From NCBI GenBank assembly GCA_965215565.1, contig CBDCDZ010000004.1:4160001-4224000 (forward strand): a stretch of 64,000 nucleotides of DNA, given 5' to 3'. The position numbers and the translations under genes are program-made. The stretch's first letter is position 1; every line of letters begins with the position of its first letter. Positions 18,491 through 27,350 of the stretch are shown here, piece by piece. Source of the stretch: Trueperaceae bacterium (GTDB taxonomy: Bacteria > Deinococcota > Deinococci > Deinococcales > Trueperaceae). The notes under the pieces were generated by a model. It made no database searches. It was not told the origin of the DNA and saw nothing but the letters and a program-made list of their open reading frames with translations.

Positions 18491-18506
18491 TTTGAAAGGA
18501 CTATCT

Positions 18507-19292
18507 ATGGCAACCGCTTACAGTTCTCTAGCTAAAAACGCCGCTCACGCCCCCGAAGATGGGGAGCGCATCATCGAAGTTGAAGGGCTCAACAAGTGGT
18601 TCGGCGACTTTCACGTGCTGAAAGACATCGAGCTTTCCGTCAATAGGGGAGAGGTCGTCGTAGTCATCGGTCCGTCGGGCTCGGGAAAGTCTACACTGAT
18701 TCGCTGTATCAATAGGCTCGAGGAGCACCAAGAGGGTAAGATTTTCGTCGATAAGGTTGAACTCACCGACGACGTGAAAAAAATCGACCAAATCCGCCGT
18801 GAGACGGGCATGGTCTTTCAGCAGTTCAACCTCTTTCCGCACCTGACCGTTATGGAGAACATCACCTTAGCGCCCATCCGCGTACGCGGATGGAAGAAGT
18901 CGAAGGCGGAGGAGCGGGCGCAGTACTTTTTAGGCAAGGTCGGCATCCCTGAACAGGCGAACAAGTACCCCGGTCAACTTTCGGGCGGTCAGCAGCAGCG
19001 CGTGGCGATTGCGCGGGCACTGACGATGGAGCCCAAAGTCATGCTCTTCGACGAACCCACCTCTGCGCTCGACCCCGAGGTCATCGGTGAGGTCTTAGAA
19101 GTCATGGTCAACCTGGCGCAAGAGGGGATGACGATGGTGGTGGTAACGCACGAGATGGGGTTTGCTCGCGAAGTGGGCAACCGCGTGATCTTCATGGACG
19201 CAGGGCAAATTGTAGAGGTGGGGAGCCCGGAGCACTTCTTCACGAATCCGCAAGAGGAGCGCACCAAGTCGTTTTTATCGAAGATTCTTTAG
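18507..19292 (+). CDS. aapP: Amino-acid ABC transporter ATP-binding protein
   Basis: [25 protein letters not shown]. Confidence 0.95.
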
Positions 19293-19422
19293 ATTTTGCG
19301 TCCGACGCCGATGGACACCGGTGTTGTTGGTTTGAGACCGAATCGGGTCCGTAAGTTTTTCGTTCTGGGTACTCGAGCGTAGGGGTAGAAACAATTCTTT
19401 CTCTCGTTGAGCAGCACCCGCT

Positions 19423-19638
19423 TCACGCGGCTAAAAGTGCGTCCTTTGCCAGCTCGAGAAAAGAAATTGCCTGCTCACGGCTCACACCGGGAAAGCCGTC
19501 TAAAAACTCATCTAAGGTGTCGCCGCCCTCGAGATAATCCAATAAGTTTTGAACAGGCACACGTGTATCCGTAAGGACAGGCGTGCCGCCTAGAATCTCA
19601 GGGTCAGTGTGGTAGACCTCTTCGCGCGTCATCGGCAT
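19423..19638 (-). CDS. DUF433-family antitoxin
   Basis: DPEILGGTPV..TRVPV..L..YL..G..L.EFL..FP pattern. Confidence 0.9.
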   Translation of the reverse strand: MPMTREEVYHTDPEILGGTPVLTDTRVPVQNLLDYLEGGDTLDEFLDGFPGVSREQAISFLELAKDALLAA

Positions 19639-19958
19639 TAGGACGCCTTATCCAGTCGTTCGGCAATCCACTGATTCAGGCTTTTGCCCTCTTTTTTAGA
19701 AGAGGTGTACACCTTGCGGTGCAGTTCAGGCGATAAGCGGAGCATGAGCTTACCGGAAAAAGGCTTATCGGGCTCTTCTCCGCGTTCTTCGCAGAACTCG
19801 AGGTAGTCATCTACGGAACCCCTAAACGCTTGAGAAAGTTCGTCCACACTTTTACCTTGAAACGTCACTACATCGCGCAGGTCGAGCACTTCACCGCGAA
19901 AGATGCCCGCTTCGTCGTTAAATTCGACATGTCCCGTATATCCTTTGTAGTTCAACAT
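19638..19958 (-). CDS. hicB: HicB-family antitoxin (no hicA upstream)
   Basis: YKGYTG, SVDDYLEFC, PDKPFSGK..LRL.PELH, SLNQW. Confidence 0.92.
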   Translation of the reverse strand: MLNYKGYTGHVEFNDEAGIFRGEVLDLRDVVTFQGKSVDELSQAFRGSVDDYLEFCEERGEEPDKPFSGKLMLRLSPELHRKVYTSSKKEGKSLNQWIAERLDKAS

Positions 19959-19980
19959 TAGTGCACCTCAAAAACTAGGA

Positions 19981-20008
19981 TTGGCTCGAGTCGTGATAAC
20001 GCAACGCC
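19981..20008 (-). repeat. yoeB-tail repeat R1
   Basis: TTGGCTCGAGTCGTGATAACGCAACGCC; minus strand encodes ALRYHDSS. Confidence 0.8.
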
Positions 20009-20017
20009 GCACCATCT

Positions 20018-20311
20018 TTACTCGAGCCGTTCTCGCCAATAATTTGGCTTGCGATGACCGTGCGCTACAGCAGCGACGATGACACGCTCTTCGCGGATGA
20101 AATAAGCAACGTAGAAGGGGAAAACAGGACAGTTGACTCGTCTATAGCTGCCTTCACGTTCGCGCTAGAGCAGCGGGTCTGCGAGGATGCTCGTACAGAC
20201 CCTAAGCACCTCATCTCGAAACCGGACGCCGAGCCCCGCTTCTCTACTCTCGTAATAGGTTGCAGCCTCTAAAAATTCATCTCGAGCTTCGGGTAGGAAC
20301 TCTAGCGTCAC
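20018..20311 (-). pseudogene. parE: ParE/RelE-family toxin with an internal TAG
   Basis: Manual translation MTLEFLPEARDEFLEAATYYESREAGLGVRF...DPLL*REREGSYRRV...FPFYVAY...AVAHGHRKPNYWRERLE; GTGA overlap with the antitoxin; TAG at 20165-20167. Confidence 0.88.
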
Positions 20312-20541
20312 TTCGCTAAACGCTTATCAATCTCTTGGAAGACCTGAGAGGCGGAAAGACTCTGTACATCTCCTCCGTCGTAAGCTTGAATGCGACGCTG
20401 AATTTCAGCATCCCAAGCCGCTTCAACCTCTTTAGCTTCTTGTGGCTCGAGGCTACTCAGTAAGCGGTGCGCAAGCGTGAGGCGCTGGTCTTCTGGAAGG
20501 GTCAGTGCGTCACTCGTAAGGGTATCAATCGTCTTTTGCAT
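20308..20541 (-). CDS. Putative addiction-module antitoxin component
   Basis: AL.LP..QR..LA..LL.SL...AW..EI.RR pattern; TACAAT 6 nt upstream of ATG 20541. Confidence 0.85.
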   Translation of the reverse strand: MQKTIDTLTSDALTLPEDQRLTLAHRLLSSLEPQEAKEVEAAWDAEIQRRIQAYDGGDVQSLSASQVFQEIDKRLAK

Positions 20542-20572
20542 AGAGACATTGTAGCACTGAGGGTTGGAGAGG

Positions 20573-20713
20573 TTAGCTCGAGCCGTAATACCGCAACGCC
20601 ACGATATGCAGCTCATTTCCCTGTACGCGGTAAACCAGCCTGTGTCCATCCGTAATGCGCTGTAACCACCAGCCGGAGAGGTTGTATTTTAGCGCTCTGG
20701 GTTTGCCTAGCCA
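20573..20713 (-). pseudogene. yoeB: YoeB toxin C-terminal relic (repeat R2)
   Basis: Translates LGKPRALKYNLSGWWLQRITDGHRLVYRVQGNELHIVALRYYGSS*. Confidence 0.9.
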
Positions 20714-22411
20714 TCAAGTATTGAAAGGGGCTTTCCAAACTGTCGTAGCTAAATCGGCTAATTTTTCTTGTCGTTTTTTAAGCGTTAGTGGTGTCCACTC
20801 GTTATATATACTTCTCTCACTCGTTAGCTTGTAAACGCTTTCTCTGTAAATAGGAAGCTTCTGCTCATAAGGCTTGTTGGCACACACCTTATTTTTCTGC
20901 GGTTCAAGTAAGGTTAGGTTGCCTATTCTTTGCGTCGCTTTATCTTGCTCTTCCGGTGAAAAGAAAACGCCCCAGGCTTCCGAAGCATTTTCAGGTAATA
21001 TGTGCTCTATTGTAGCTTTCATGTTGTCACTGTAATCATACGCCGTAGAAGCCAGTTGGTTTTCAAGCTCAAAGAGAATATAGCGTATTAAATTATTGTT
21101 ACGCTGGAGTGTTTTTAGAGCAAAGTTAGCTTTGAACCGCTCGTCATCTATGTAGATAGATTTTAGCTCTGTAAAAATATTGCTAGCATTTGCTAAACGT
21201 CCCGAAGTCACCTTGACGGCTGCTCTATGGTAAACATCCTCGAGAAGGTTGGGGTTCAGTCCGCTAATGACATTGTAGCGAAAAGAGATAGCAACGCAGA
21301 GCCTTAACAACTTAGTAAACTCTTGAGAGTCGAGCTTTCGGTAGGCGGCGAGGAGAAGAGGATAGCACTGCCTAACTCTAAAAAGGTCAAGTGCATCTAT
21401 CCACTTGACCTGCTCTTTCTCCCAAAGGTCATCAGCAGGTTTCGATAGCGCGACAAATACTTCAACGAGGTCTTCTAAATCTTCTAGGAGACTAAAGACG
21501 CTCTCTCTAGTCGTGATAGTTGATTTTATTGCCTTAAACAGTGTTTGCTTGCGCTGAAAAGAATATTTTGAATTCCAGTAATAGCGTAGAAAAGAAGGAA
21601 AGTCCTTATTGCTCAAACTGTCGTTGATGCTCTGCCACTGTCTTTCCGCCTCTTCAAGGTCCGCCTCACCTCCTCTAGCAGCAACGGAGAAGAGGAAATT
21701 TTTAAGTAGGTCTGTCGTTGAGAGACGCACGCCTCGAGCGTTGAGCGTCTCAAAAACCTTATAAGCATTGAGGTCATCTGCCACTGTTATTGTTGTAAAA
21801 ACTAGTTTATCGGCTACCGTCTTCTCTAGGAACTCTGTAAGCATAGCGCCATCTCGTTCATCCTCGAACCGCTCTTTAAGTCGCTCGTAAAGATATTCGA
21901 GAGCTTCCCAAAGTAGCCTTTGAGACGGTTTCAATTTGCGTCTATTCGTGGGAGGACGCAAACGCAGTAAGCGACTTTGATAAAAGTCATCATTGTTGCG
22001 ATTCAGAAAAAGCTTGCTTCTCAACATTAGTGAAGAGACATCTGTTTGACTGATAAACCTGCTCGTTAAGAGTTCTTGACGTTGCTGATTCTGATCTGAC
22101 GAAATTCCTTCATCTGCCCAATCTCCTAATAGCTTGATGACAGCAAGTACTAAAATACTGAGTGTTGTGATTCGCTGCTGCCCATCAATAATAATGAAAT
22201 TGCGGTTGTCATCGCTCTGCAAAACTACGTAGCCCATGTAGTGAAAGGTTTCTTCTCCCCTGGAGACCTCTAAAATATCCAGCCACAGGTCTTCCCACTG
22301 TTCCTCTGCCCATGAGTAATCACGCTGATAAGGAGGAACCCTAAAAACCCGCCCATTACTTATGAGATCATTGAAAGTGGCTGTGCCTGTAGGTAAAAGA
22401 ACCGTTGCCAT
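20714..22411 (-). CDS. DUF262-DUF1524 (GmrSD-like) protein, putative modification-dependent restriction/defence nuclease
   Basis: PPYQRDYSW, IDGQQRITT, FETLNARG; C-terminal HNH-like EHILP...IGNLTLL...N; AT-rich. Confidence 0.9.
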   Translation of the reverse strand: MATVLLPTGTATFNDLISNGRVFRVPPYQRDYSWAEEQWEDLWLDILEVSRGEETFHYMGYVVLQSDDNRNFIIIDGQQRITTLSILVLAVIKLLGDWADEGISSDQNQQRQELLTSRFISQTDVSSLMLRSKLFLNRNNDDFYQSRLLRLRPPTNRRKLKPSQRLLWEALEYLYERLKERFEDERDGAMLTEFLEKTVADKLVFTTITVADDLNAYKVFETLNARGVRLSTTDLLKNFLFSVAARGGEADLEEAERQWQSINDSLSNKDFPSFLRYYWNSKYSFQRKQTLFKAIKSTITTRESVFSLLEDLEDLVEVFVALSKPADDLWEKEQVKWIDALDLFRVRQCYPLLLAAYRKLDSQEFTKLLRLCVAISFRYNVISGLNPNLLEDVYHRAAVKVTSGRLANASNIFTELKSIYIDDERFKANFALKTLQRNNNLIRYILFELENQLASTAYDYSDNMKATIEHILPENASEAWGVFFSPEEQDKATQRIGNLTLLEPQKNKVCANKPYEQKLPIYRESVYKLTSERSIYNEWTPLTLKKRQEKLADLATTVWKAPFNT

Positions 22412-22518
22412 CTATATGTTGATTCTACAAAAGTATTGTGTATTCTGTCTGCAAGTCAGCGTCATACGCTTTTGGTAGATGCTCGAGCATCGTTTCCTCA
22501 CCTCTTTACTTCCGAGCG

Positions 22519-22644
22519 TTGGCTCGAGCCGTGATACCGCAACGCCACGATATGCAGCTCAGTTAGATTTTCTCTTTTCAAAGTCTCGAGTCGCTTCTAA
22601 GAGGCGTTCGGCGTTGGCGGGGCTGCGCAGCAAATGGTATGTCT
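22519..22644 (-). pseudogene. yefM 3' relic fused to yoeB tail (repeat R3)
   Basis: TYHLLRSPANAERLLEATRDFEKRKSN* followed directly by ELHIVALRYHGSS; about 110 bp nearly identical to 23699-23810. Confidence 0.88.
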
Positions 22645-22649
22645 AAAGT

Positions 22650-22931
22650 GTGCCGTTCGAACTGACGATTGCGCCAAGTATCGAAGAGAAGATTTGGACG
22701 AAGCACCGCGTTTTACCTGACGAGGTTCGCGAAACGCTAGACGACCCTACCCTGCGGCGCTTTCTCGTTAAGCGCAACCGTAAAGCGAGGGAGATAACCT
22801 ACCTGTATGTAGGATTGACCTATACGGATAGGCTCTTGAGGTCTATCATCATCCACAAGCCGGACGGGTCAGCCTACCTAAAGACCTCACTTGATGCGTT
22901 CAAGCAAGACCGAATCGGCTATAATAGGTAA
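22650..22931 (+). CDS. BrnT-like toxin
   Basis: KI..KH.V...EV.E and Y...G.T...RLL pattern; 93 aa, upstream of a small acidic ORF. Confidence 0.65.
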   Translation: MPFELTIAPSIEEKIWTKHRVLPDEVRETLDDPTLRRFLVKRNRKAREITYLYVGLTYTDRLLRSIIIHKPDGSAYLKTSLDAFKQDRIGYNR

Positions 22932-22933
22932 AG

Positions 22934-23116
22934 ATGAGTGACGTTCTAAATCGCCGCGATACTGAGCACAGAGTCATCACCGACCCCGAGGACTTGCCCA
23001 ACTTCGACCTCATGTCGGATGATGAGGTTATGGCATGGTGGGAGCGTCATGAGGTCAGCGCGGAGATTCTAGCCTCTTTGGAAGACACGGGCGAAGAGAT
23101 AGACTTCGACTTTTAG
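22934..23116 (+). CDS. BrnA/CopG-type antitoxin-like small protein
   Basis: LPNF..MSDDE..AWWERHE motif; 2 nt after the toxin stop. Confidence 0.6.
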   Translation: MSDVLNRRDTEHRVITDPEDLPNFDLMSDDEVMAWWERHEVSAEILASLEDTGEEIDFDF

Positions 23117-23166
23117 GGCGAATAGGGCTGAAAACTTTTGAAGTGTGGGCTCGAGCCAGGTTTGAG

Positions 23167-23199
23167 GGTTAGCTCGAGCCTCAATACCGCAACGCCACC
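23167..23199 (-). repeat. yoeB-tail repeat R4
   Basis: GGTTAGCTCGAGCCTCAATACCGCAACGCCAC. Confidence 0.85.
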
Positions 23200-23208
23200 G
23201 TATGAGAC

Positions 23209-23460
23209 TCAACTTATCAGCCTGTCATACTCAGCGTGGCTACCAATCCAGACCCAGATGAAATCGTCGCCGTCTTTCACGGCTAAAGCTCGGTAGCTGA
23301 GACCAACGCGCACCGACCAATAACCACCCACTTCCTTGAAATGCAGCGACGGATGCCTAGGGTTCTCTTTAAGCAGCTCGAAGTTCTTACGGGCAAGTCT
23401 TTGAACGTTTTCACTCAGCGCATCAAAACGCTTCCAAAACTGCGGCGTAGTGCGGTGCAC
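23209..23460 (-). CDS. RelE/ParE-like toxin
   Basis: FW..F..L, NPRHPSLHFK.V, SVRVG..YRALA, WIGSHAEYD. Confidence 0.88.
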   Translation of the reverse strand: MHRTTPQFWKRFDALSENVQRLARKNFELLKENPRHPSLHFKEVGGYWSVRVGLSYRALAVKDGDDFIWVWIGSHAEYDRLIS

Positions 23461-23661
23461 CTACAAGTCCCGCAGTTCACCCTTGGCTTTAGCCGCCTTC
23501 GCCTCTTCCCGCAGAAACTCGAGTTTGCCCGCCGCCGCATCCTTCTCTATCTGCTCATCCCACTGTCGCCAATCTCTTTCGGCGAACCATTCGCGCAGAT
23601 GGATAAAGTCTTCGGCTGGTAAGGCTTCAATTTCGGCTTTGAGATGATCAACTTGAGACAT
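23461..23661 (-). CDS. Antitoxin of the RelE-like pair
   Basis: I..LP......LREWF...DW..WD.QIE.D...GKL pattern; TATAAT 5 nt upstream of ATG. Confidence 0.82.
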   Translation of the reverse strand: MSQVDHLKAEIEALPAEDFIHLREWFAERDWRQWDEQIEKDAAAGKLEFLREEAKAAKAKGELRDL

Positions 23662-23698
23662 AGGTGATTATACGCGAAGTTAGAGAAGAGGTCAGGTT

Positions 23699-23972
23699 TT
23701 AGCTCGAGCCTCAATACCGCAACGCCACGACATGCAGCTCAGTTAGATTTTCTCTTTTCAAAGTCTCGAGTCGCTTCTAAGAGGCGTTCGGCGTTAGCGG
23801 GGCTACGCAGTAAGACCATTGTCTCCTGCCGAGCGTTCCAATCGTCCAAGCTCATCATGACCACAGCCTTGTCGCTGCCTTTGGTGATGATGAGGGGGTG
23901 TGGTCGTCCACAACCTCATCTACTGCGTTGGCTAGGTTCTTGCGGGCTGTGGTGTAACCGAGGATTTTCGTA
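23699..23972 (-). pseudogene. yefM: yefM pseudogene fused to yoeB tail (repeat R5)
   Basis: ACG start, KILGYTTARKNLANAVDEVVDDHTP/frameshift/LIITKGSDKAVVMMSLDDWNARQETMVLLRSPANAERLL...KSN*, then ELHVVALRY. Confidence 0.88.
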
Positions 23973-23975
23973 GAA

Positions 23976-25394
23976 TTAACTGCTTTTCACCTTTTTAGTC
24001 GAAGGAAGCTTCGGAAACTCAACAACCTGCCCTGCCCCCGTCTTAATTGCTCCTCGACACTGCTTCGCGAAATCCTTATCGTCATTCTCTTTCAAATACT
24101 TAGCTGGACCGAACAAGTCGATAGTGCGGATCAAAGCAATTTTAGAACGCTGTGCCCCGCTCAAACACTTTGTCGTGAAAAATTCTTTCCTCGTATTTGG
24201 TTTATCGAAGCGATAGGCGTTGCCGAAAAGAACGCCGTTTGCGTACTCGTCAACTTCTTCTCTTGCAAAATCCTCCTGTAATTCTCTCTCAAGTTGGCTC
24301 AACTTATCTATATTGATAGCTTTGTTATCCCTTCCTTCAGCTTCACCTATGAATCTACCTTCCTCACTTACAAATACTGCATCGAACTCGGACTCATCGT
24401 TTTGATAATTCTCAGCCTCAAAACCAAAGAGCTTCAGCGCTTCGATAATGGCTGACTCTAGCGGTTTTCCTTTTTCGAACAGTACATCACGAAGAGAACC
24501 CTCTTTTCGAAGTTCTTCTTGAAGGATAGTACGCTCAGTATTTAGATTTTCAATTTTATTCGTTATGTTTATTATCTCTTCTTGAAGAGCCACTTCACTC
24601 TCGAGATTGAACTTGGAGTCTTGAGTCCAATCTGGTGGCGGAGTGACCTCACTTCTCGTTTTCAACGCTTTATCTACTTGTACAAGGGCTGTAACTAATC
24701 TTTTAGTAAATGCTTTACCCTTCTCATTCTCAATGTACTCATCTGTTTCTTCGTCGTAGTCGGATAGCTCTTCAATATCGTAGTCAAGTGAAGGCAACAG
24801 CACTAAGTGCCCTTTACCTACTGACAATATAGAACCTACAGTTTTGCCACCAGATTTAGTTGCAAGAATAGGAAGTCCAACTGGTTTATCTAAATATGCT
24901 TTGTATTCGGAATGCTCGCCGAAATCTTTCCAGTAAGTTGTGAGCGGTCCCAACTCTGCTAATGCCTTAATCTTCTCTCCACTACGAGAGATGAGATGAT
25001 CAAGCTTAATAGGTAGAATCTCGTAATTATTGTGGGGCTCAACATGCTGAGTTGTCACTCTGTTTTTTCCCGTTCCAGAGAATGATTTATTCCCTGTATA
25101 TGCGTAAAACGTATTCCTAGCTCCTAAGAAGAAAAAAACTGTTTTACCCCCTTCTAATGCGTTCTTTATCTCTATACGCCAGTGCGATAGAGCTTCAACG
25201 GTTCGAAAAGATAAAGATTGACTTAGGAGGGGTTTACCGCCGTATTGCTCGCTTGAATAAAGTATAAGGTCTATTTCTGGACTAGCTAGGATAATGTCAG
25301 CGTCCAAAAGAGATCGACTAGAGAAAAAGCCAATTTGCTCGTCTCCATCCGAAAGAATTTCTACGTTAAGCGAGAAAATGGCTCGTTTTGCCAT
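23976..25394 (-). CDS. AT-rich hypothetical protein with a coiled coil and a C-terminal PD-(D/E)XK-like nuclease fold
   Basis: LE.AI..AL..FGF...EFDAVF...FIGEAEG..QL pattern; low GC. Confidence 0.55.
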   Translation of the reverse strand: MAKRAIFSLNVEILSDGDEQIGFFSSRSLLDADIILASPEIDLILYSSEQYGGKPLLSQSLSFRTVEALSHWRIEIKNALEGGKTVFFFLGARNTFYAYTGNKSFSGTGKNRVTTQHVEPHNNYEILPIKLDHLISRSGEKIKALAELGPLTTYWKDFGEHSEYKAYLDKPVGLPILATKSGGKTVGSILSVGKGHLVLLPSLDYDIEELSDYDEETDEYIENEKGKAFTKRLVTALVQVDKALKTRSEVTPPPDWTQDSKFNLESEVALQEEIINITNKIENLNTERTILQEELRKEGSLRDVLFEKGKPLESAIIEALKLFGFEAENYQNDESEFDAVFVSEEGRFIGEAEGRDNKAINIDKLSQLERELQEDFAREEVDEYANGVLFGNAYRFDKPNTRKEFFTTKCLSGAQRSKIALIRTIDLFGPAKYLKENDDKDFAKQCRGAIKTGAGQVVEFPKLPSTKKVKSS

Positions 25395-25459
25395 TCCATA
25401 ACCCCCTTATAAACATCAGGTGTTAGATGGCGCTACACATAAAGCAACGCACCTCTACT

Positions 25460-27322
25460 TCACCCCAATACATCCAACGCCTCCTCATCCCCCACCTCCT
25501 CCAACACCTCTTTCCGCCGCGTCGCCCACGCCGGAAAAGGAAAACTCAGCATCAAGGGGCTCGGCACGTCGGGCTGGTGCACCACCATCGTACCGGGGGC
25601 GAGGATGGTGGCGCGGGAGCGGAAGGTGGCGGGCATGAAGCGGTATTCACTGCGTTCGGACTCGGCGGCGTCTAAGCGTCCGACGATGCGCACGGCGGCG
25701 TTGGCGACGATGCGGCGCTCCACTTCGGAGGCGGTCTGCTGCGCCCCGATGAGGACGATGCCCATGCTGCGCCCGCGCTCAGCGATGTCTAGGAGCACGT
25801 CTTTGATGGGGCTGTCCCCCTCGGCGGGCGCGTACTTGTTCAGCTCGTCTAAGACGACAAAGACTTGACCCTTGCTATTGCGCGACTCCTGCACGCCGAA
25901 GACCTGTTTTAAGAGGACGCCGACAACGAACATCTGCGCTAAGGGCGCGAGGTTGTGGATGTCCACGACGTGAACTTGTTTTTCACTGTTCAAGATGTCG
26001 AGGCGGCTGCGGCTGACCTCTTTTTGGGACAAGTCGCCGCGAATGAGGTGGCGCAGGTGCTTAGACGCGCCGCGCAGACGGCGGATGAAGGCTTCGCGGG
26101 TGGCTTTGGCTTGGTTGGCGGTCCAGGCACGGTTGCCGCCTTTGCTGCTCTCTTCGTCTTCGGCTCCCTCGAGCAGCAGCTTGTACTCGATGTAGTCCAC
26201 CAGCTCTAAAAAGGTCGTGAGGCGCGGCTTATGCGAAGAGGTCATGAAGTCTTCTGCGCCGAGCGCGTCCGTTTCGCTGATGCGTCCGACTTGTTCTTGA
26301 CCGGGGCGGTAGCCGGTGTCTTCGTCGGCGACCTCGAGGTAAGGTCCGCGCTGCTTTTCGGCGAGCTTGGCGAGCTTTTCCTCCAAGTGGCTGACCAAAA
26401 AGCCCAAGTTCGTCATCGCGTCGCGGTCGGTCAGGACGAAAGGCAGCATCCGCTCGGCGGCGAAGTCGCGCAGGGTCCAGAGGTACGGCGAGACGCCCTC
26501 GCGGGTCTCCACATCGGCGCGAAGGGTGCTTCCCTCTCGAGCAGGTGCGTGCAGGGCGACGCTCGGAAACGGACCTACCGGCAAATCACAGATTTGAAAA
26601 CGGGTCTCCGCGCTCTTGCGCTTCTCCTGCCACTTTCGCTCGGTCTCGACGAAGTCCTTGTTCTCCTTGTCCAAAAAGAGCAGGTCTTCGCCCTTGACGT
26701 TGAAGATGATGGCTTTGGTGGCGTTCGGGTTGGTGAGGAGGCTGCCGCCCCGCTCGCGGTGCTGGGCGTTGAAGATGCTGTAGAGCAGAAAGAGCGCGTA
26801 AGAGGTCTTCGTGGCGATGCCCGAGATACCCGAGATGTTGATGTGTGCGCCCTTTTGCCCGCTGATGAAGTCGTAGTTGAGGTAGCCGGGCTCGCCGTTG
26901 CGCAGGACGCCTGCGGGGAGGGGCGCGTCCATATTGTCGAGGTAGAGGGCTTTTTCTAACGCCGTATCCGTCGCCATGTAGACCAAATCGCCAGGACCGG
27001 GCGGGATGAAGTCTTCGGGTTCGACCCTGGTCACCAAGATGTGCGCGGCATATGCGATATTCGCGGGCATCAACCCTTGCGTCACGAGCGCCGTGTCCCC
27101 GTCGAACTGCACGCCTTCAAAGCGGCGGCGCACCTCGTCCACGACACCGTAAAAGGTCACGGCTTCGTCCTCGTCCGAGGGGTCTTGCACCTTGACGGTC
27201 AAGATGTCGTCGAGCTGGATTTTGACGCCGTCCTCGACGGCGATCCAGAATTGGAGAGGTGTCGCATCTTCAGTTCCGAGTACCATTCCAATGGGAGTTT
27301 CGCTGTTCAATTTAGAGGTCAT
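25460..27322 (-). CDS. herA: HerA-family ATPase/helicase
   Basis: HAS barrel N-terminus; HINISGISGIATKT Walker A; VVLDELNKYAP; AERGRS.G; GAQQ. Confidence 0.88.
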   Translation of the reverse strand: MTSKLNSETPIGMVLGTEDATPLQFWIAVEDGVKIQLDDILTVKVQDPSDEDEAVTFYGVVDEVRRRFEGVQFDGDTALVTQGLMPANIAYAAHILVTRVEPEDFIPPGPGDLVYMATDTALEKALYLDNMDAPLPAGVLRNGEPGYLNYDFISGQKGAHINISGISGIATKTSYALFLLYSIFNAQHRERGGSLLTNPNATKAIIFNVKGEDLLFLDKENKDFVETERKWQEKRKSAETRFQICDLPVGPFPSVALHAPAREGSTLRADVETREGVSPYLWTLRDFAAERMLPFVLTDRDAMTNLGFLVSHLEEKLAKLAEKQRGPYLEVADEDTGYRPGQEQVGRISETDALGAEDFMTSSHKPRLTTFLELVDYIEYKLLLEGAEDEESSKGGNRAWTANQAKATREAFIRRLRGASKHLRHLIRGDLSQKEVSRSRLDILNSEKQVHVVDIHNLAPLAQMFVVGVLLKQVFGVQESRNSKGQVFVVLDELNKYAPAEGDSPIKDVLLDIAERGRSMGIVLIGAQQTASEVERRIVANAAVRIVGRLDAAESERSEYRFMPATFRSRATILAPGTMVVHQPDVPSPLMLSFPFPAWATRRKEVLEEVGDEEALDVLG

Positions 27323-27350
27323 GCGGTCTCCAGAAGATTGCAATAGACTA

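Follow-up and report, generated by a model that had tools for sequence, protein, structure and literature searches.

The window analysed here, a 64,000-nucleotide stretch of a Trueperaceae bacterium genome (contig CBDCDZ010000004.1, positions 4,160,001 to 4,224,000), carries downstream of a herA-like ATPase gene a stack of toxin-antitoxin (TA) and defence modules, each accompanied by its own decayed end of a yefM-yoeB pair. We consider it probable that this stack arose through repeated insertion with long target duplication (ILTD) and was reshuffled by host recombination, with no dedicated recombinase taking part. Module order differs between related genomes at the same repeats, and the same anatomy recurs across the genome around unrelated repeats, other gene ends being duplicated in like manner; for these reasons ILTD by host recombination, and not a new integron, is the likely origin.

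Five yefM-yoeB remnants in the window

A degenerate pattern for the yoeB tail recovered five copies of a 28-bp core (R1 to R5, at 19981, 20573, 22519, 23169 and 23699), all with 0 mismatches, and none of 100 shuffles gave any match (0 expected). Core identity among the repeats is 22-28 of 28 positions, with conserved flanks and a variable middle, and R4 equals R5 over 30 bp. Searched by BLAST against all 4.49 Mb of the genome to which the window belongs (G000), the region gave the core at the array only, not dispersed genome-wide; the sole outside matches fall in an intact yefM-yoeB paralogue (C4:775369-775834, 75-78% identical).

The initial annotation described the repeats as yoeB tails with one fixed and one ragged end, abutting module boundaries. 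Raggedness is borne out by the extents (about 30, 140, 115-122, 30-36 and 275 bp for R1 to R5), as are the boundaries, every junction lying within about 10 bp of the stop or start of the adjacent module. The other end is nearly fixed, some copies agreeing for up to about 15 further bases beyond the stop codon. On the minus strand the YoeB C-terminus (ELHIVALRY[H/Y]GSS) can be read in R2 and R3, but R4 and R5 have a stop in frame and R1 reads GAALRYHDSS. Nor are R3 and R5 long yoeB tails: both consist of the yefM 3′ end and the last ~46 bp of yoeB, joined across one common internal deletion, and therefore at least one copy arose after the pair had decayed. The yefM of R5, which we infer to be the founding target of the array, lacks its start codon and is frameshifted.

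G000 was apparently assembled from a mixed sample, since run X7, its possible source, also contains variants of relatives, and this could favor an assembly artefact or chance similarity as the explanation of the repeats. Against it, independently built X7 unitigs cross the junctions, span R1, R2, R4 and the R5 core without a single difference and extend into R3; no match was obtained by chance, and two other genomes carry the same repeat. An artefact is thereby refuted and retains next to no probability.

Reordering in relatives and duplicated gene ends across the genome

The locus was compared with two same-genus relatives (G001 and G002), which are separate species and not strains, within a family survey of these three genus genomes and 125 others. 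The tail pattern is present downstream of herA in 3/3 genus genomes. Among the 125 other family genomes a single weak match with 3 mismatches was obtained and treated as chance; metagenome and viral contigs gave none, and genome contigs only two overlapping loci of one record. Intact yoeB genes of the family showed no comparable array in 30 loci and 12 larger regions.

Given in gene direction and starting from the herA side, module order is different in each of the three genus genomes. G000 has the ParE pair, BrnT pair, GmrSD, Unstab/RelE and hicB-DUF433; G001 has a pair which we take to be DUF4160/DUF2442-like, then GmrSD, BrnT pair, Unstab/RelE and DUF433; G002 has hicAB-DUF433-DUF5615, the same presumed DUF4160-like pair as G001, BrnT pair, a truncated Unstab/RelE and a truncated hicB. 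Between G000 and G001 the places of GmrSD and BrnT pair are thus exchanged, the ParE-like module is missing from the arrays of G001 and G002, and the hicA partner of hicB, absent in the window array, is present in G002. At every position in the three genomes the fragment junction stays with its module. An R2-type repeat follows the GmrSD gene in G000 and G001, R3 is found with the BrnT-like pair in each of the three genomes, in decayed form in G001 and G002, and an R5 equivalent stands after herA in G001 and, further decayed, in G002. The GmrSD genes of G000 and G001, located at different repeats, are 74% identical against 86-93% for herA, the nurA-like gene and other modules, which fits separate arrivals or an older duplication; a close GmrSD copy was found only in G001, metagenome relatives being 42-60% identical.

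A contig of run X4, ~93% identical to the window, presents the GmrSD start, R3 and then the RelE end, joining 22552 to 20020 in exact R3/R1 register (offset 2538). As far as the contigs go, this joint may equally represent a further order in another strain or a circle. Runs X1, X2 and X4 hold small shares only and were used for joints, not for habitat. Absences of single modules, and no wholly empty allele of the window array, were seen in G001 and G002. The comparison of this interval across relatives, with its gains, losses and order changes at the repeats, and the X4 joint agree with the earlier proposal that modules were repeatedly acquired at one site with duplication of the yoeB end.

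Local direct repeats were then scanned across G000, giving 287 pairs, of which 86, in 38 loci, were left after removal of dispersed repeats and of repeats within open reading frames (ORFs). In an automated test for a unique bracketing repeat (score of at least 34), 8 of 51 TA-like loci were bracketed as opposed to 1 of 300 control ORFs, the single positive control resembling a Uma2 gene. Four more bracketed TA loci escaped this test because target and cargo had been merged. The tally for G000 is two further arrays and about 10 single modules bracketed by 24-115 bp duplicated gene ends.

The second TA array follows pilin genes and contains 6 copies of a repeat that comprises terminator, promoter and antitoxin start (L104:5950-9400; G000 C4:1138951-1142391). 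It has 7 copies in G001 (L119:5476-10213) and, by eye, about 3 variant copies in G002 (L120), modules being largely different, and no CTCGAG is found at its repeat ends. The third, after clpB and 12 kb before the window, has 3 copies of a 44-64 bp repeat ending at CTCGAG (L105:5204-7915; G000 C4:4145204-4147915); the repeat is single-copy in G001 and in G002 (L121:4850-4913; L122:4864-4927), G000 having two extra modules. Duplicated gene ends also bracket single TA or Uma2 modules; they come from ureF (76 bp, 97%), from another gene (100 bp, 96%), from genes of the nitroreductase-like (66 bp), RES (83 bp) and Uma2 (38 bp) kinds and from others, where the names ureF, nitroreductase-like, RES and Uma2 are our assumption from the translations. 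Among four empty-site tests, the ureF and nitroreductase-like ends were single-copy in G001, and in another a ParDE module and its neighbour had exchanged order around a 31-bp repeat.

Related repeat arrangements were also seen around other genes. In G001 the intact yefM-yoeB is cargo in its turn, lying between 70-bp repeats that derive from another antitoxin-like gene (L221:6874-7813), and each of the three genomes has the intact copy in different surroundings. Another repeat, 40 bp long and with CTCGAG at either end, encloses a Fic pair in G000 and a block of three TA-like pairs in G001 (L125:2012-3065; L219:4938-7353). Outside the genus, 4 of 27 DUF5615 loci are bracketed, one by a tRNA end and one by a CTCGAG-rich repeat. 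The counts of bracketed DUF433 and DUF5615 loci take in loci of G035, where no repeat was seen and on which none of our conclusions depends. In other genera, a CTCGAG-rich repeat region surrounds TA genes (27 copies in 3.3 kb, L164), a 182-bp duplicated kinase 5′ end brackets a DUF433/DUF5615 pair (L170:970-2258) and a 113-bp repeat brackets another (L152:1323-2673).

Mechanism and competing explanations

The favored course of events is as follows. A module already linked to part of the target would arrive, probably through transformation with DNA of relatives, and enter as a circle or in one step; one join would be made by homology within the gene end and the other illegitimately, often at or beside the abundant CTCGAG, with target end, module and target fragment, in this order, as the product. 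Module and fragment would from then on behave as a unit able to loop out, or to enter any other copy, via a crossover in the shared 28-46 bp, with gain, loss and reordering as the outcome. The concentration of joins at stop and start codons would reflect selection, any other outcome breaking the resident gene or the module, and addictive cargo would slow its own loss. A comEC domain is encoded in 3/3 genus genomes.

Several points weigh against ILTD by host recombination. Neither a circle nor an insertion event was observed, and the origin of a new module beside the same tail in a donor is left unexplained, at least six different modules being concerned. Several repeats are only 24-41 bp long, which is short for RecA-type integration, and the joins are strikingly close to module ends. 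The comEC frame covers 580 aa in G000 (C4:3713749-3714525) versus 737 and 789 aa in the relatives, so competence may have been lost in the G000 strain. Two of the four empty-site tests gave no clean result, since the module is retained without a clear second copy at the RES/HNH locus of G001 and at the nitroreductase locus of G002, 43 of the 51 TA loci had no bracketing repeat in the automated test, and DUF433 loci are bracketed in 5 of 15 cases in G001 but in 0 of 15 in G002. Reordering could alternatively stem from unit duplication and differential loss. In Deinococcus radiodurans, deletion between 438-bp repeats is efficient and RecA-independent, and DdrB drives repeat recombination (Ithurbide et al. 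2015, PMC4627823); a search with PF12747 found no DdrB in the 3 genus genomes.

The hexamer CTCGAG, which belongs to the yoeB tail, deserves separate consideration. It is the most over-represented 6-base palindrome in G000 (6,990 copies, 5.0-fold over the zero-order expectation), and all of the 17 large loci sampled in relatives are enriched in it, by a factor of 2.6 to 10.3. Other palindromes are strongly avoided (GGCGCC, GAGCTC, GCATGC, CAGCTG, TTTAAA and ACGCGT, observed/expected 0.02-0.06). G000 and G034 have intact yoeB genes whose ends read RYHYSR and likewise contain the hexamer, and CTCGAG is thus native yoeB sequence rather than an added att core. In a post hoc test on 14 hand-picked events, counting a hexamer within 8 bp of a repeat end, CTCGAG was found at the repeat end in 5, compared with 3.8% for gene-end segments (p ~1e-4), and not in the other 9. 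Passive microhomology and an enzyme fit these junctions alike. Searches of openly accessible main texts turned up no report of CTCGAG as an iterated palindrome.

These 5 events could indicate an enzyme, and it is possible, though we hold it to be rather unlikely, that some host enzyme nicks or recombines at CTCGAG, making the hexamer an active junction signal at which a gene end is duplicated afresh with each capture. Besides the excess of CTCGAG in G000 and its enrichment in most sampled family loci, fresh copying of a resident tail would suit the very short repeats and the identical R4 and R5 cores of a decayed allele. The cyanobacterial highly iterated palindrome HIP1 has moreover been linked to site-specific recombination and transformation efficiency (PMC4390886; bioRxiv 2024.09.10.611283). 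However, the test was chosen after the data had been seen and its events were hand-picked, most of them, including the pilin-side array, have no CTCGAG at the end, and a hexamer with 6,990 sites cannot account for the reuse of one site; its abundance equally provides passive microhomology. Profile searches found no XhoI-family nuclease in the genus and one in only 1 of 61 family genomes, and no CTCGAG methyltransferase was identified, the many PF07669 matches including none that could be tied to CTCGAG. That Trueperaceae possess an integrase-free capture route keyed to CTCGAG, in which a host enzyme joins TA and defence modules at the hexamer or next to it and duplicates a gene end each time, is a speculation of low probability; were it true, any gene end could be turned into an integron-like, reshuffling defence array. 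We regard as improbable that a yefM-yoeB unit, with or without a neighbour, was tandemly duplicated, that modules later replaced copies while deletions eroded the rest, and that the orders arose by differential loss. The internal deletion common to R3 and R5, which dates at least one copy after the decay, the truncated hicB and RelE duplicates in G002 and the faint similarity to one another of the leaders after the yoeB tail speak for it; yet no tandem TA duplication is required for the ureF and nitroreductase-like brackets, whose sites are single-copy in a relative, copy number at the clpB-side locus rises from 1 to 3 with two unrelated modules, and every replacement would have had to begin no more than about 15 bp from the stop codon.

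Least plausible among the biological alternatives, and largely refuted, is a yoeB tail serving as att site and acted upon in trans by a tyrosine or serine recombinase, as in an integron, pdif modules or the accretion of integrative elements. The conserved flanks and variable middle of the core and the cassette-like order changes would suit such an enzyme, and the genome search gave 6 matches to tyrosine recombinases and a single one to a serine resolvase, the latter on a small contig. All are far from the window, in which no integrase or resolvase matched, and IntI stayed below the TIGR02249 cut-off in all 3 genus genomes (best 108 bits versus 265). The initial annotation had likewise reported neither integrase nor attC in the window, and the genome-wide recombinase search it had called for does return matches, though none near the window and none above the IntI cut-off. 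Folding of 10 strands around the repeats gave no attC hairpin better than shuffles (z -1.61 to +1.85), core arms are complementary at 5 of 11 positions at most, with neither dyad symmetry nor dif-like arms, and GC skew indicated no clear terminus near the array locus. Two inverted recombinase-binding arms with a fixed spacer, as in pdif, Xer or phage att sites, are accordingly rejected, and so is an integron or CALIN (cluster of attC sites lacking an integrase). Homology runs raggedly upstream into the gene, the opposite of what displaced attR fragments would leave, unrelated repeats play the same role elsewhere, and viral and metagenome contigs yielded no copy of the tail pattern. The results do not support a role of the yoeB tail or GCTCGAGC as a dedicated att-like anchor: no attC fold or dyad is present, the CTCGAG belongs to native yoeB codons, and unrelated gene ends and terminators serve as anchors at other loci.

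Described counterparts

ILTD of restriction-modification genes was reportedly described by Nobusato et al. in 2000. According to Furuta, Abe and Kobayashi (2010, PMC2853133), such genes are found with long, variable target duplications and without other mobile elements; the duplications are 44-47 bp or longer, often include a start or stop codon and come for the most part from competent species, and the mechanism is hypothetical. The insertions in G000 resemble these cases in their addictive or defence cargo, in a long, variable and locally unique direct repeat that spans a start or stop codon, in the empty site of a relative, in the lack of a linked mobile-element gene and in an unproven mechanism. 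Set against the definition in that text (repeat above ~30 bp, insert below 20 kb), repeats are 30-275 bp here and 24-115 bp elsewhere, a few below the 30-bp threshold, with inserts of the size defined. They are locally unique and not dispersed, no mobile-element gene lies in or beside the insert, and a single copy occupies the empty site of a relative at the clpB-side locus (G001, G002) and at the ureF and nitroreductase-like loci (G001). The cargo differs, consisting of TA pairs and one GmrSD gene instead of restriction-modification genes, and for this reason we consider that the locus works like ILTD, as a variant in cargo. This described counterpart speaks against the earlier view of an integron-like system without precedent.

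What would be new here is ILTD applied to TA and defence modules, repeated and reshuffled; the kind itself is known. Compared with the cases of PMC2853133, from which the word "toxin" is absent, the cargo is mostly type II TA, up to 5-7 events are stacked at a single site with their order changing from species to species, one genome alone has about a dozen sites, and a palindrome abundant in the whole family is enriched at junctions. In their accessible parts, PMC3874152, PMC3457768 and PMC2654758 cite the phenomenon for restriction-modification and rRNA genes and not as a route to TA arrays. We found no report of TA cargo, of stacking with reshuffling or of CTCGAG at repeat ends in searches of openly accessible main texts. 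The genus offers a dense natural record, with about a dozen events in one genome, three stacked arrays, single-copy sites and reordered alleles, which suggests that host recombination alone, by a mechanism that we infer, could build integron-like, shuffling defence arrays.

Integrons and CALINs are likewise variable, reorderable arrays of compact cassettes rich in TA and defence genes. The locus shares the variable, reorderable cassette array, but it has no IntI, no attC hairpin and no R boxes, and its repeats are gene-derived and ragged in length. Arrays at rhs tips, for which circular intermediates and homologous recombination were proposed (Jackson et al. 2009, PMC2935791), and effector-immunity arrays of the type VI secretion system, for which homology-facilitated illegitimate recombination was proposed (Kirchberger et al. 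2017, PMC5361080), also contain unrelated modules separated by gene fragments of variable length, with no integrase. There, however, a module is fused in frame to a live gene and displaces its old C-terminus, with one anchor family. In the window array modules begin after the stop of the tail, have promoter-like leaders of their own and in one case are inverted, while the anchor is dead; unrelated gene ends or terminators act as anchors elsewhere in the genome. As to the palindrome, PMC4390886 and bioRxiv 2024.09.10.611283 describe HIP1 as highly over-represented in cyanobacteria, with hints of a role at recombination junctions. CTCGAG shows the same lineage-wide over-representation but differs in sequence and phylum, and its own junction role is a post hoc statistical hint; it is nevertheless a highly iterated palindrome outside the cyanobacteria, and one that may act at gene-capture junctions.

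Modules and neighbouring genes

The modules belong to distinct families, as noticed before, although not all of them appear complete: the RelE-like toxin gene has an internal stop and no hicA precedes hicB (Table 1). Neither half of the former matched Pfam or NCBIfam, and its RelE/ParE label is presumed from context. The BrnT-like protein has no Pfam match, and its putative antitoxin partner and that of the ParE-like gene gave no family match with Pfam, PADLOC or NCBIfam profiles. Profile and cluster searches assigned no family to the 472-aa protein.

Table 1. Repeats, modules and flanking genes of the array, in window coordinates.
Feature	Coordinates	Strand	Evidence or remark
ABC-transporter ATPase, presumably aapP-like	18492..19292	+	distal flank of the array in G000 only
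DUF5615 (PIN-like) gene, 5′ remnant	19385..19426	-	gene whole in G002, DUF5615 match at the G002 array
DUF433 antitoxin-like gene	19423..19638	-	PF04255, E 4.6e-16
hicB	19638..19958	-	PF05534, E 1.2e-21
R1, yoeB 3′ tail copy, ~30 bp	19981..20010	-	pattern match, alignment
RelE/ParE-like toxin gene, internal stop at 20165-20167	20018..20311	-	88% identical to the G001 copy
Unstab_antitox addiction-module antitoxin	20308..20538	-	PF09720, E 3.1e-13; TIGR02574 above cut-off
R2, yoeB 3′ 140 bp including the tail	20573..20713	-	PF06769, E 1.8e-13
GmrSD-family (DUF262-DUF1524) candidate defence nuclease	20714..22411	-	PADLOC HEC-06, E 1.4e-215
R3, yefM 3′ fragment fused to yoeB tail across internal deletion	22519..22640	-	alignment
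BrnT-like small protein, inverted module (a lead only)	22650..22931	+	Atlas clusters at 0.94, PF04365 on 25% of members
Putative antitoxin partner of the BrnT-like gene	22934..23116	+	no family match
R4, yoeB tail copy	23169..23204	-	identical to R5 over 30 bp
ParE-like toxin	23209..23460	-	PF24732, E 1.3e-8
Putative antitoxin of the ParE-like gene	23461..23661	-	no family match
R5, decayed yefM fused to yoeB tail across internal deletion	23699..23973	-	PF02604, E 2.1e-13
472-aa AT-rich hypothetical gene, no flanking repeat	23976..25394	-	slot after herA
herA-like ATPase	25460..27343	-	conserved array anchor in the genus

Hexamers resembling a -10 element occur at 20538-20560, 22411-22435 and 23661-23680, with modules starting 6-10 bases later, and their placement suggests leaderless transcripts with minimal promoters carried in the cassette. 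Rfam gave 0 matches in 18500-26500.

The aapP-like ATPase gene does not adjoin the array in G001 or G002. In G002 alone, the upstream ATPase gene is broken up by an insertion sequence (IS). Between herA and yefM each genome has an AT-rich gene of its own, without flanking repeat: the 472-aa protein in the window (23976-25394), a 293-aa restriction-enzyme-like protein (L032:3867-4748) and an OLD/Gabija-like ATPase split by an IS (L034:13077-16165). This looks like plain replacement.

Two further kinds of repeat were noticed. A dispersed family of ~115 bp, resembling miniature inverted-repeat transposable elements, has well over 100 copies (e.g., L104:6537-6654), one of which (L034:12803-12918) interrupts the yefM of G002. 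CRISPR-like repeat arrays are located at G000 C4:4338588-4340280 and 4350074-4350465.

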